Of a stretch of 64,000 bases of DNA, positions 37,146 to 41,455 are shown piece after piece. The position numbers and the translations under genes were made by a program. The stretch is from Escherichia coli (GTDB taxonomy: Bacteria > Pseudomonadota > Gammaproteobacteria > Enterobacterales > Enterobacteriaceae): assembly GCF_003334765.1 (NCBI RefSeq), contig NZ_QOWT01000009.1; one strand, given 5' to 3'. The notes under the pieces are model-generated. The model ran no database searches. It saw only the letters and a list, made by a program, of their open reading frames with translations, and was not told the DNA's origin. Every line of letters starts with the position of its first letter. Position 1 is the stretch's first letter.

Positions 37146-39242
37146 TTAGCGGAAATTGACGCTACGGTCGCTGGTCATGTCATACAACTGGAACTTACGC
37201 CCAAGTTGCTGACCACCGTCACGCGTCAGCGGCGTCCAGCCAATCGCCGCACGGCTGCGTGTCGGGCCAGACGAGAAGAGATCCAACGGTACCGAGACAT
37301 ACACGCCTTTGGTGAAGTCCCCTTCGCCGTACTCCTCTTTCGAAACATTAGTGATCGTGGCATAGCCACCCACCACCACGCCGCTATCAAAGCGTTTGGC
37401 GATCTCCAGCGTGCCGCCTTTATCCCCTGCCAGATACTGCCCGACGCTGGCTTTAACTAACACATCCTGAGCGAAAGATGGCGTCCAGTAGGCGGTCAGA
37501 TGTCCGGTTTTCACGCTGTAGTCGGTGAATTTCATCATATCTTTTGCACTACGCCAGTCGCGCTGTTTAACGTAGTTGGCATCCAGACCAAACGCCCAGT
37601 TGCTGTCCAGCGGGCGATACAACACTTCTGCCCCCGCACCGCCAAACATGGTTTCGAGATAACCACCGTAGACCTGACCGTAGAAGCCGTTGCCCAGATG
37701 CTGGAAGTAGTTGGCTTGCAGGTTATTCACATAGACATCGTTCTGCACATACTCGCGCACATGGGTACGCACGCGCGGTAAGTGCGAGTCCTGCGGAGGA
37801 TTAGTGTAGTTAAACTTGTCGTAGTTGTTGGCAAGATTTGCAAACAGGCTGCCGGTGGTCAGCAGATGGTCCGTCAGCCACAAATCTGCCGTTCCCATCA
37901 CGCCCAGCTGATACATGTAAAAGTTTTCCGGGCCACCGACCGACTGGTTCAGCACCGGATCGATATGGAAATCAAAGCGTGATTTGTCGATATACCAGCC
38001 CTGCTCGGTGGACTGCGGAACCACTGGCTCGACGCGTTTTTGCGCCAGCGTCGTTTCGTGGCCCAACGGCTCTCCGGCGAGATGATTTTTCAGGCTGGCG
38101 ACATCGGTTTCCGTCGTCACCTGCGGCATGTTAAGGCGATTTTCCGTAATGCGGATCGTTTTGATCCCATCCGGCAGATCGTTCATCACGATCCGATTCG
38201 CACGGATGATCCCTTCGCGCGAATCACGATATTTCACCTGCTCGCCGGTAACATACAGCGTATCGCCTTTCGCCTGGATCTGTGGATCGGCAAGTCCGGC
38301 ATTGTATTTCAACAGCGTTAACTGATTCGCCACCACCGAATGCTGCAAAATGGCATCCTGCGGCTGCGGTTGATATTGCGGGCGGGCGTTATCGTTGTAA
38401 GACGGGCGCAGATCGTTAAAGTTGGTGCGCAACGTAACGCCAAACATAAAGGTGTTGCCACGTTCATAGCTAAGGTTAACGTCGGCCCAATCGGTAACGC
38501 GATAAATCGCACCGACGTTAAACTTACTTTTTTGCTCCAGCTTCCCGGCAAAATCCTGCTGATAATTATTGCCTTCATACTCCAGTTTCAGGCGCAGCGG
38601 TTGCCAGGGCGTCTGGTATTCCACGCCGCCAAACAGTGAGGCAGGACCGTGGAACATCTGGCTACCGTCGATAGATCCCGCCTGTTTGTAGCTGTTATCG
38701 CGATAGCAATATTTATCACTGGCTGAACAGAGCGGATTTTTCACATTACCGCTGGTGCCCAAATATCCCCAGCCCAGGCCGAGCGTAAAATCGAACGGCC
38801 CCCAGGCTTTGCTGGCAACAAGATATTCCGCATCAAACAGCCCCGTACCGCCGATATCCCGCGCACCAACCGCCACTTGCGGCAGCCAGTAACTCTCTTC
38901 CCACAAACGCAGTTTGAGATCGAAGGCTTTATCTTTATACGTTTGATCGCCAGAGAACGCTTCGACGCTGCTGTACTGCCGGGTGCGCACGTCGGTGTAG
39001 CGCAGCGTTGTTTCCAGCCACGGGAAGAGTTGCACTGAAGCTGAGTAATAACGGTACTGATCGTTATCGCGATAGTTCAGACTCAACTCCCCTTCCCGTG
39101 CCATACGCGCGGTGGGCGTTTGTAATAATCCTACGCCACCGAAATCCGACTGCGACGGACCAATGGGCGCAGGATATGTTTCGCCGTAGCAAGCTGTGCT
39201 AATGCCCAGCGCCAGTAAGCTAAGCAGATGTCTTTTTTTCAT
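37146..39242 (-). CDS. yjbH: outer-membrane-associated protein of the yjbEFGH exopolysaccharide locus (698 aa)
   Basis: Track ORF 698 aa [26 protein letters not shown]..., signal peptide; ends in aromatic residue (...SVNFR region). Confidence 0.9.
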
Positions 39243-39979
39243 TATTGAGGTATCCGCTGCGTCAGAGTCTGAAGAATGTCGGCGTTAAGGGCATCAGGCG
39301 TCTCACTCCAGACGGAGTCCGCGAGGCCAACATAAATAATGCTGCCGGGCATCGGCTCTACGTGACGCTTGTTCCAGTAAGCCACCGGCGCTTTTTGCGT
39401 GCGTCCGTCCGGGTAAACCACCCACGCGTAGCTGCGATCCGCACCGCTGAGCAGGCTCTGGTCAGAGAGATAGCTCGCCACGTCGCGACCTGGAGTGAAT
39501 GGCTGCTTGCCAGGACGGCTGATAAGCCCGAACAACGTGACCGTGGACGGCGGTGGTCCGACCCACAGCGTGTAGTTGCCCTGCAACGGCGGGTTACCGC
39601 GTTCGGCAACGCGGACGATATCGGGATCAAGATTGATTTTTTGCCTGCCCGTCACTTTCAACGCCTGAATTTGCTGGCGTAAGGCGTTAATCGCAGCGGC
39701 ATCGTCGGCGCTGGAATCTGCGCCCTGTTCTGCCAGCCGTGTCAGCAACGCCTGCTGCTGACGCAATGCTGCCGCCGTTGCCAGCTCTTCGCTAATCACC
39801 GCACCGGGCCACCAGCTGTTTGCCAGCCGCGGTTGGCCTACCAGATCGATTAAATGCTCTGCGCCCGTTAGCGTTTTGGCCTCACTGCTGCCATTGCTGA
39901 ACACCTTGACGGTTCCTGCCGCGAAGACCGATGACGCTCCCACACTCAAAAGCAACGCGACAATAGTTTGTTTAATCAT
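39242..39979 (-). CDS. yjbG: periplasmic protein of the yjbEFGH locus (245 aa)
   Basis: ATG at 39979 inside track ORF 39242..40075 (which starts at TTG) gives [23 protein letters not shown]...; ATGA start/stop overlap with yjbF. Confidence 0.88.
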
Positions 39980-40614
39980 TGTTTTGCCGCCTTGATGAGA
40001 GTGGTTTTCACCGGAAAATAATCCGCGCCGAGATACTGTTCCGACTGGCGAATTTGCCCTTCGCTGTCGATCCAATAGCGGTTATGCCAGCGCGCCTGGT
40101 CGGTGGAGACTTCTTCGTCCAGCACGCGAACCGGGGTTTCATCGCTGCCGACTTTGACGGTATCGGTGCCATCCCATTTGAAGACTGAGCGTGCGGTGGC
40201 GTAGCGTACCTGCTGGTACTCGGTCCAGCCCATCGTGCGCGTCCAGCTTGCGCCATCAACGATTTGTGCGGGTTTAATCAGCGGGTCGGCAGCAAGGTTA
40301 TTCACTTCAATCAGGTTGTCGCCGCCGAGCAGAGTCTTCACCAGACGGCCATGTTGGGTAACGAGAGTAGCCTGATCCTGAGTGACCCATTTTTGTTGTC
40401 CGTCTTCAGCGAAGGCCAGCACCACAAATAACTGCGGCCCGCCATTAAGCTGCATGTACTGGCTGGCGTAGGGCATATTTTGAATATCATCATCCGTCAG
40501 CTGTACGCCTGGCGTGCCGAACAGACTGTCCCACAGTGAATTGCCCAGCTCTTTAGTCGTGGCTGAACAGGCCTGTAATAACAGGCAGATAAGAATGAGT
40601 GCAGGTCGCTTCAC
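39976..40614 (-). CDS. yjbF: lipoprotein of the yjbEFGH locus (212 aa), GTG start
   Basis: Track ORF 39976..40644; GTG at 40614 with GGAG SD gives (M)KRPALILICLLLQACSATT, lipobox LLQAC. Confidence 0.85.
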   Translation of the reverse strand: MKRPALILICLLLQACSATTKELGNSLWDSLFGTPGVQLTDDDIQNMPYASQYMQLNGGPQLFVVLAFAEDGQQKWVTQDQATLVTQHGRLVKTLLGGDNLIEVNNLAADPLIKPAQIVDGASWTRTMGWTEYQQVRYATARSVFKWDGTDTVKVGSDETPVRVLDEEVSTDQARWHNRYWIDSEGQIRQSEQYLGADYFPVKTTLIKAAKQ

Positions 40615-40727
40615 GACTCTTCTCCAGAGGGGCAGAATAACCACACCGGAGTGTGGTTATGGTTAATCCCTTCATACTTCTAGCCACAGATGCAATGACT
40701 CGAATTATTTTGGGGATACATACTTTA

Positions 40728-40970
40728 TTACTGGGTACTGGTGGTCGTGGTTGTGGTGGTCCCGGTATTAGAACCATCACCGCCACCGGTTGCCGCAAGC
40801 GCGACACCCACCGCCGAGCTTACGGTGCTGACGCTGGTCGCGGAGGAACTCCCCGCCGAAACCGACGTTGCTGCCGACCCTGCCGCTTCGCCCACCTGTA
40901 CAGGTGCAGCCCACGCAGAAGTCGCCGCAAGCGCAGATATGGCAAAAATGCCATACAGAACTTTTTTCAT
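40728..40970 (-). CDS. yjbE: small secreted Ser/Thr/Ala/Gly-rich protein (80 aa)
   Basis: Track ORF 80 aa [21 protein letters not shown]... ending in a poly-Thr tract [11 protein letters not shown]. Confidence 0.85.
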
Positions 40971-41378
40971 AACAATTTCCCTTCATTGAATGAATGGAGA
41001 TTTACCCAAAAACATTTCGGGCGGGATCGAGTATACACAACTAAAGCATGCGAATTACGGCGCGGGGAATTAGCGATGGCGTTTTAGGATAATTGGAATG
41101 AATATCAAATATAAGTTTCAACTTATATTTAAATAACAATAAAAATCATAAACTTAAAATAAAAACAAAAGCAATTAATCTGCGTATTTTCCGAAATAAA
41201 CAACGATTAAAAATCTATTTTAGGATTAACCTCATGGTATGATTTCCGTTAAATCACAGACAAGGGAATTTATCTGATAAAAAAATGCCGACATAACGTC
41301 GGCATTGTTATTAAGGTTATTTAATCAATCGTGCTATGTATTAATTGCCGAATACGATGTACATATCGGCATCGACCT

Positions 41379-41455
41379 GTAGGCCTGATAAGACGCGACC
41401 GCGTCGCATCAGGCATCGGTTGCCGGATGCGGCGTGAACGCCTTATCCGGCCTAC
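41379..41455. repeat. BIME / REP pair between pgi and yjbE
   Basis: gtaggcctgataagacgcgaccgcgtcgcatcaggc ... gccggatgcggcgtgaacgccttatccggcctac. Confidence 0.9.

Follow-up and report, generated by a model that had tools for sequence, protein, structure and literature searches.

The small protein YjbE of Escherichia coli ends in a run of seven threonines (T7), and the constancy of this run across species points to purifying selection on the length of the protein tail, not on the DNA that encodes it, within a conserved C-terminal module containing T7-ST. We consider it probable that this module (GGGDGSNTG, the seven threonines and S-T-Q/R) is under length constraint and is read by a partner, and that alleles arising by misalignment stay rare. 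The analysis concerns yjbE in a window of 64,000 nucleotides, by which we mean the whole stretch of E. coli DNA considered; the coordinates of its features are collected in Table 1.

The RefSeq name yjbE ('exopolysaccharide production protein YjbE') is carried by 100%-identical genes, including those of E. coli K-12 and many other strains, and the gene was found in 5,421 of 5,426 complete E. coli genomes. Residues 1-79 of the product give a significant full-length HMM match to the Pfam family PF11106 (YjbE; model positions 1-79 of 79, E=5.5e-33), which places the window protein in this family. The window gene is the founding member of PF11106, and the family model already spans the threonine tail, to which the family description gives no function. 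A scan of YjbE, YjbF and YjbG against NCBIfam returned no families. The gene stands first in the yjbEFGH operon, with pgi upstream and with yjbF (PF11102), yjbG (GfcC family) and yjbH (PF06082) following on the same strand, an order seen in the RefSeq annotation of near-identical E. coli loci and also in distant homologs; in the window, two further minus-strand ORFs come after yjbE. In the papers found, yjbE figures as a reporter of Rcs activity or as an induced gene, and none of them addresses the YjbE protein itself.

An antisense ORF of 82 aa, which starts MVVVVVVPV and holds a V7 run, mirrors the low-complexity region of yjbE and was rejected as a gene because the yjbE frame matches Pfam and carries the conserved features of the family. 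In strain EC25 (locus L002, 1-784), IS1A is inserted in the 5' part of yjbE, and the annotated 65-aa remnant retains the T7 tail. A laboratory screen for sedimentation resistance also selected IS1 insertions between or within yjbE and yjbF, in the yjbE-yjbF region (PMC8117528). The exact E. coli YjbE (80 aa, 82 aa) was reported absent from a collection of 15 billion proteins, a word-indexed search giving mainly truncated or frameshifted versions; this absence is probably an effect of low complexity or of indexing and not biology.

Table 1. Features of the yjbE region, in window coordinates.
Feature	Position	Strand	Basis or remark
yjbE, 80 codons and stop (80 aa)	40728-40970	-	ORF list
Signal peptide (predicted Sec), residues 1-21, then AP	40908-40970	-	basic N-terminus, hydrophobic core, A-x-A motif
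Central Ala/Gly/Val-rich segment, residues 44-61, predicted helical	40788-40841	-	AlphaFold2 helix 44-61, low confidence
GGGDGSNTG motif, residues 62-70, before the Thr run	40761-40787	-	in divergent homologs (unbiased phmmer search)
T7 run, residues 71-77, ACC ACC ACA ACC ACG ACC ACC	40740-40760	-	sequence reading and cross-species counts
S78-T79-Q80 and TAA stop	40728-40739	-	ORF list
GACCACCA 8-bp direct repeat, first copy, bounds the 15-bp duplication of T12	40754-40761	-	k-mer analysis and T12 allele structure
GACCACCA 8-bp direct repeat, second copy	40739-40746	-	k-mer analysis and T12 allele structure
Interval encoding N68-T79	40734-40769	-	ORF translation
String ggtactggtggtcgtggttgtggtggt	40734-40760	+	exact correspondence
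Antisense ORF, rejected	40741-40989	+	mirror of the yjbE low-complexity region
ORFs after yjbE	39976-40644 and 39242-40075	-	ORF list
yjbE-yjbF spacer	40645-40727		polymorphic in E. coli
Spacer hairpin, perfect 10 bp, AUAACCACAC UCCG GUGUGGUUAU	40637-40660	-	no U-tract; about 23 nt upstream of the yjbF start
Terminator-like hairpin for pgi	41284-41306	-
Rfam STnc430 and naRNA4 (REP-type), pgi-yjbE intergenic	41167-41316 (+) and 41382-41452 (-)		both above threshold

The original prediction described the end of yjbE as a poly-threonine stretch encoded by an imperfect triplet repeat, and the ORF translation, which gives T7, bears this out. In coding orientation its codons are ACC ACC ACA ACC ACG ACC ACC AGT ACC, the same codon occurring at most twice in succession, and TRF picked the tract up only with the threshold at its permitted minimum (period 3, 7.3 copies, 78% matches, score 30). 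Short direct repeats are nevertheless present, as k-mer analysis located ACCAC 5-mers spaced 3, 6 and 6 bp apart and the 8-bp repeats GACCACCA spaced 15 bp apart. At the residue level, the six frames of the whole window contain 392 stop-to-stop segments of 60 aa or more, and T7, with its own antisense V7, is the longest single-residue run in them. The tract is unusual as a protein feature and poor as a DNA repeat.

For the comparison across species, we searched one genome of each species with a degenerate DNA pattern encoding GG(D/N)G(S/T)NTGTTT, which gave at least 120 loci; the pattern demanded NTG and at least three threonines, which leaves family members with very different tails outside the sample. 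The matches listed come from genera that include Citrobacter, Enterobacter, Salmonella, Erwinia, Pantoea, Cedecea, Kluyvera, Buttiauxella and Kosakonia. Among the 120 species loci listed, the run counts seven threonines in 107, six in 5, five in 7 and four in 1, and more than seven in none. The 107 T7 tracts listed use 68 distinct codon strings, and in 78 of them no more than two identical codons follow one another. Holding one length with so many codon strings argues for purifying selection at the protein level. Moreover, yjbF lies downstream in 111 of the 114 assessable loci among these matches, and T7 was found in 103 of the 111 yjbF-linked copies, as against T6 in all three clearly unlinked copies with enough flank.

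The same trend was observed at the level of single columns. We aligned 115 full-length homologs, drawn from the matches listed, with the E. coli sequence; T74-T77, which the search pattern does not force, were 93-100% conserved among these matches, compared with an average of 77% over the other mature columns. Just after the run, S78 and T79 were conserved at 81% and 96%, respectively, and the final residue is Q or R in most species listed. In this alignment, the last 19 residues are the best-conserved part of YjbE. We also ran an unbiased search with phmmer over 1.84 billion cluster representatives; it returned only 29 relatives, of which 15 were full-length (45-76% identity). Eight of these 15 end in exactly NTG-T7, and the three NTG-T7 homologs read as DNA have unrelated codon strings; tails with T3, T5, T8 or an interrupted run were also present in this set. 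Such strong conservation shows that the tail is functional, without revealing its role.

Stand-alone members of the YjbE family, found without yjbFGH, were also observed (loci L020, 5001-5252; L022, 5001-5240; L025, 1221-1466; L077; L089; L107). The L022 orphan adjoins phage tail-fibre-like genes and the L025 orphan lies near a ParE toxin gene. Several genomes of Erwinia, Pantoea and Winslowiella hold two copies of the family. The orphan copies at L020, L022 and L025 carry T7; the coupling of this tail to the YjbFGH machinery is thus not universal.

Within E. coli, the length of the tract was monitored in the 5,421 genomes with yjbE by allele-specific megablast. Queries were shorter than 100 bases, so the '>=99%' identity band means an exact match, and 14 records covering <80% of the query were left out of the allele assignment. 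T7 was found in about 5,316 genomes (about 98%), T9 in 85, T5 in 18, T12 in one and a 2-bp frameshift in one; in-frame alleles other than T7 thus amount to 104 of 5,421 (about 1.9%). The queries agree with one another. With the T7 query taken from the window, 103 records (= 85 + 18) fell in the 90-95% band expected for a 6-bp indel. The T9 query gave 31 exact and 54 one-mismatch records, i.e., 85, and the synthetic T5 query matched 18 records with the T5 length, besides single records that exceed T7 by 15 bp and fall short of it by 2 bp, with 85 records in its 80-90% band. Identity bands were cross-checked against the listed spans, in place of dedicated queries, and this revealed neither T6 nor T8 among the E. 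coli genomes: all 16 records in the 95-99% band of the T5 query were listed and none has a T6 span, while for T8 the counts of 85 (T9 query), 85 (T5 query) and 103 = 85 + 18 (T7 query) are concordant.

The structures of these alleles indicate how they differ from T7. In T9a, ACCACA is duplicated, and T9b consists of (ACCACA) x3 followed by ACC ACC. T5a, T5b and T5c are three distinct 6-bp deletions, the T5 codon strings being ACC ACC ACG ACC ACC, ACC ACC ACA ACC ACC and ACC ACA ACA ACC ACC. The T12 allele of strain Res13-Lact-ER07-18 duplicates the 15 bp between the GACCACCA repeats. All in-frame changes are thus steps of 6 or 15 bp between short direct repeats (ACCAC, GACCACCA), and single-triplet steps number zero. 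The frameshift allele corresponds to one annotated frameshifted pseudogene, in strain FCI56, and, coming from a single assembly, may be a sequencing error. When 3-kb flanks were compared, T12 differed from T5a by 1 SNP and T5b from T9b by 2 SNPs; identical T5a and T5b structures were also found on flanks 68-88 SNPs apart. At least four independent length changes have taken place in E. coli, some of them on nearly identical flanks. Given that alleles recur on such flanks, the tract is a mild indel hotspot that moves in steps of two or five codons, and is neither a site of triplet slippage nor a contingency locus.

It had been proposed that slippage of the triplet repeat could make tract length vary between strains. 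This is borne out in kind, since T5, T9 and T12 occur and arose more than once, but to a far smaller degree: these variants amount to about 1.9% of 5,421 genomes and differ by 6- or 15-bp steps, with no single triplets. Likewise, the comparison of tract length across E. coli genomes that had been suggested as a check found it not invariant (T5, T9, T12), with about 98% of the 5,421 genomes at T7.

These data also bear on whether the tract could be a contingency repeat of the hypermutable kind, in which changes of length would provide adaptive or antigenic variation between strains. The existence of length alleles that recur on closely related backgrounds is what such a locus would produce, and like the contingency loci of Neisseria and Haemophilus the yjbE tract is a repeat in a coding region whose length changes by strand misalignment. 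Those loci, however, are long perfect tracts with high switching rates that turn genes on and off by frameshift, whereas the yjbE repeat is interrupted, has the same length in 98% of genomes and changes in frame. The long perfect tract and frequent polymorphism that define a contingency locus were not found here: identical codons come at most in pairs, TRF scores the tract at 30, in-frame non-T7 alleles are limited to about 104 of 5,421 genomes, the only frameshift comes from one assembly and may be an error, and the length is fixed across genera among the matches listed. We regard this explanation as highly improbable. Instead of being mildly deleterious, the rare alleles of E. coli could be neutral. 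In strain 'ST361' (locus L013, 2324-3057), which has the T9b allele of yjbE, yjbG is annotated as a frameshifted pseudogene, possibly a sign that constraint is relaxed in one lineage; strain H1827/12, also T9b, has an intact yjbG.

Regarding the protein itself, Thr, Ser, Ala, Gly and Val make up 88% of the residues of mature YjbE. The putative signal peptide has a core with a Kyte-Doolittle value of 1.65, contains an AlphaFold2 helix at residues 3-16 and ends in A-W-A followed by AP, with A21 conserved in 98% of the 115 homologs among the matches listed; from these features we infer that it is cleaved. In the central segment, residues 55-61 are 92% conserved among the matches listed. The AlphaFold2 model of the monomer has a mean pLDDT of 55 and a pTM of 0.23, and predicts coil from residue 62 on, with low confidence; a PDB sequence search with YjbE returned no relatives. 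The orientation of the tail depends on the central segment, whose 19-residue Kyte-Doolittle mean is weak in E. coli YjbE (1.24) and reaches membrane-like values of 1.9-2.1 in most homologs. With such values the tail could face either the periplasm or the cytoplasm. If the segment spans the inner membrane, which is plausible in homologs (hydropathy about 2.0), the tail would be cytoplasmic and therefore out of reach of periplasmic or outer-membrane partners.

The explanation that we consider probable starts from YjbE as a small, low-complexity protein with a signal peptide, encoded at the head of yjbEFGH, an exopolysaccharide operon induced by Rcs. Its tail would be an extended, unstructured and hydroxyl-rich peptide that something else recognises specifically, the candidates being the co-encoded outer-membrane machinery of YjbF, YjbG and YjbH, or a modifying enzyme. 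The exact length would matter for this recognition, and its being held at seven would thereby be explained. Third codon positions are free to vary, so that the DNA repeat stays imperfect. Occasional misalignment during replication, between ACCAC 5-mers 6 bp apart or GACCACCA 8-mers 15 bp apart, generates the in-frame alleles of -6, +6 and +15 bp, which recur in E. coli, remain rare and have not become fixed. The attachment of carbohydrate would be one possible, unproven form of such recognition.

A narrower version holds that the tail is unmodified and serves as a length-calibrated polar strand docking into a partner. It might augment a beta-sheet of YjbF or YjbG, or thread into the GfcD-type barrel of YjbH, and would there be a plug, a stoichiometric subunit or a factor in assembly. 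The exact length and the invariant flanks (GGGDGSNTG ... ST) fit a specific binding interface, as does the difference between operon-linked and unlinked copies among the matches listed. Moreover, yjbE mRNA reportedly exceeds yjbFGH mRNA in abundance (Ferrieres 2007, as cited in PMC8208086), and this would suit a subunit that is stoichiometric or consumed. The T7 tails of the orphans L020, L022 and L025 argue against docking into YjbFGH, and the monomer model is of low confidence; in this specific form we consider the proposal rather unlikely. The invariance of length nevertheless favours a specific interface over a mucin-like acceptor.

The original prediction took the threonine-rich tail for a likely site of O-glycosylation or polysaccharide attachment. 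In the fuller form of this reading, by analogy with the proposal made for GfcA and GfcD, YjbE would be the primer or anchor of the Yjb exopolysaccharide, which would be exported via YjbFGH. The tail is indeed hydroxyl-rich, predicted to be unstructured and strongly conserved, in a protein with a signal peptide that is encoded alongside homologs of polysaccharide-export proteins. Ser/Thr-rich disordered regions of streptococci are O-glycosylated (PMC12041528). The YjbE tail resembles these streptococcal or mucin-type regions in composition, predicted disorder and export signal. Those regions are, however, typically long and variable in length, as mucin-like acceptors usually tolerate length change, and have a known dedicated glycosyltransferase, whereas the YjbE run is short and fixed at seven and no glycosyltransferase gene lies beside the operon in the loci inspected. 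E. coli K-12 is not known to have a general protein O-oligosaccharyltransferase or to make O-antigen, yet retains the tail; we count this against glycosylation. In the membrane-spanning topology the tail would, moreover, be cytoplasmic. None of the papers found reports a modification of YjbE or GfcA. We therefore hold this attachment-site reading to be unlikely.

The GfcA idea behind that analogy is itself no more than a speculation, made in Larson et al. 2021 (PMC8592465), and GfcA was still 'entirely uncharacterized' in 2024 according to Fruet et al. 2024 (PMC11494523). GfcA (YmcD), the 'threonine-rich inner membrane protein', is encoded by the gene that opens gfcABCDE-etp-etk, the group 4 capsule operon of E. 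coli, and like YjbE is encoded ahead of one of the paralogous trios gfcBCD and yjbFGH. Both proteins have a signal peptide (..AFA then AP in GfcA), a low-complexity region of Ser/Thr/Ala/Gly and a hydrophobic Ala/Gly/Val segment, and in both a G-D-G-(G)-S-(H)-N-T motif precedes a threonine-rich end, which in GfcA reads ..SGDGGSHNTSTTTSTTR. Neither has a demonstrated function. GfcA differs in being 101 aa long, with its main threonine-rich block at the N-terminal side and a C-terminal run of T3 only. With a hydropathy of 2.16, versus 1.24 in YjbE, its hydrophobic segment clearly resembles a membrane segment. Furthermore, gfcA was found in 3,608 of 5,426 complete E. coli genomes, compared with 5,421 for yjbE; its length was 306 bp in all 39 evenly spaced full-length matches sampled. 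A BLASTP comparison of YjbE with GfcA was not significant (E=65) and GfcA gave no match to PF11106. Detectable homology was thus not found, and what the two share is architecture, operon position and tail composition only. In K-12, IS1D lies directly upstream of gfcA (locus L019, 5440-5745).

A stronger form of the attachment idea may be put forward: the Yjb exopolysaccharide would be built on, or tethered to, the invariant N-T-G-T7-S-T tail as its dedicated acceptor. YjbE would then be a bacterial 'proteoglycan core' of small size that is passed on to the outer-membrane complex YjbFGH/GfcBCD. GfcA would do likewise, by convergence or remote homology, and length seven would be set by the geometry of the modifying enzyme or the export barrel. 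We find this decidedly doubtful.

Finally, the position of the threonine codons, at the end of a short ORF upstream of yjbFGH, recalls the leader of the thr operon and could be read as a translational sensor for the downstream genes. Nine Thr/Ser codons stand just 5' of the stop, 113 nt upstream of yjbF, and the yjbE-yjbF spacer contains a perfect 10-bp hairpin. This ORF, however, has 80 codons and a signal peptide and is conserved over its full length as a protein family, and orphan copies without downstream genes keep the tail. No terminator-like site was found between yjbE and yjbF and no Rfam element overlaps the yjbE tract region. An attenuator of the thrL type was thus rejected for this 80-aa exported protein family, and the sensor reading appears extremely improbable.

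The non-coding surroundings of yjbE offer some observations of their own. The 176-nt region with the spacer hairpin folds better than its shuffles (z = -2.3), and the hairpin may be related to the higher stability or abundance of yjbE mRNA relative to yjbFGH mRNA, as reported by Ferrieres 2007 (cited in PMC8208086). Comparing loci L005, L006, L012 and L015 with the window showed that spacer length is polymorphic among E. coli strains. Most have about 113-114 nt; GPEC657, 2013C-4974 and 317 have 186 nt, and EC-1639 has 63 nt, having lost the part next to yjbE but not the hairpin. Upstream of yjbE, the Rfam scores were 72 bits for STnc430 (gathering score 47) and 79.5 bits for naRNA4 (gathering score 59.5).

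Taken as an observation, the threonine tail is correct but ordinary: it belongs to a known gene family, PF11106, and reveals no new kind of system. The length data remove the idea of a strain-variable slippery repeat of consequence. The role of the small gene at the head of each operon, yjbEFGH and gfcABCD, is a niche question in the export of enterobacterial capsules and exopolysaccharides, for which the natural T5, T9 and T12 alleles in named strains are direct test material. The seven-threonine tail, lying within the most conserved part of YjbE, would offer a handle on the role of yjbE.
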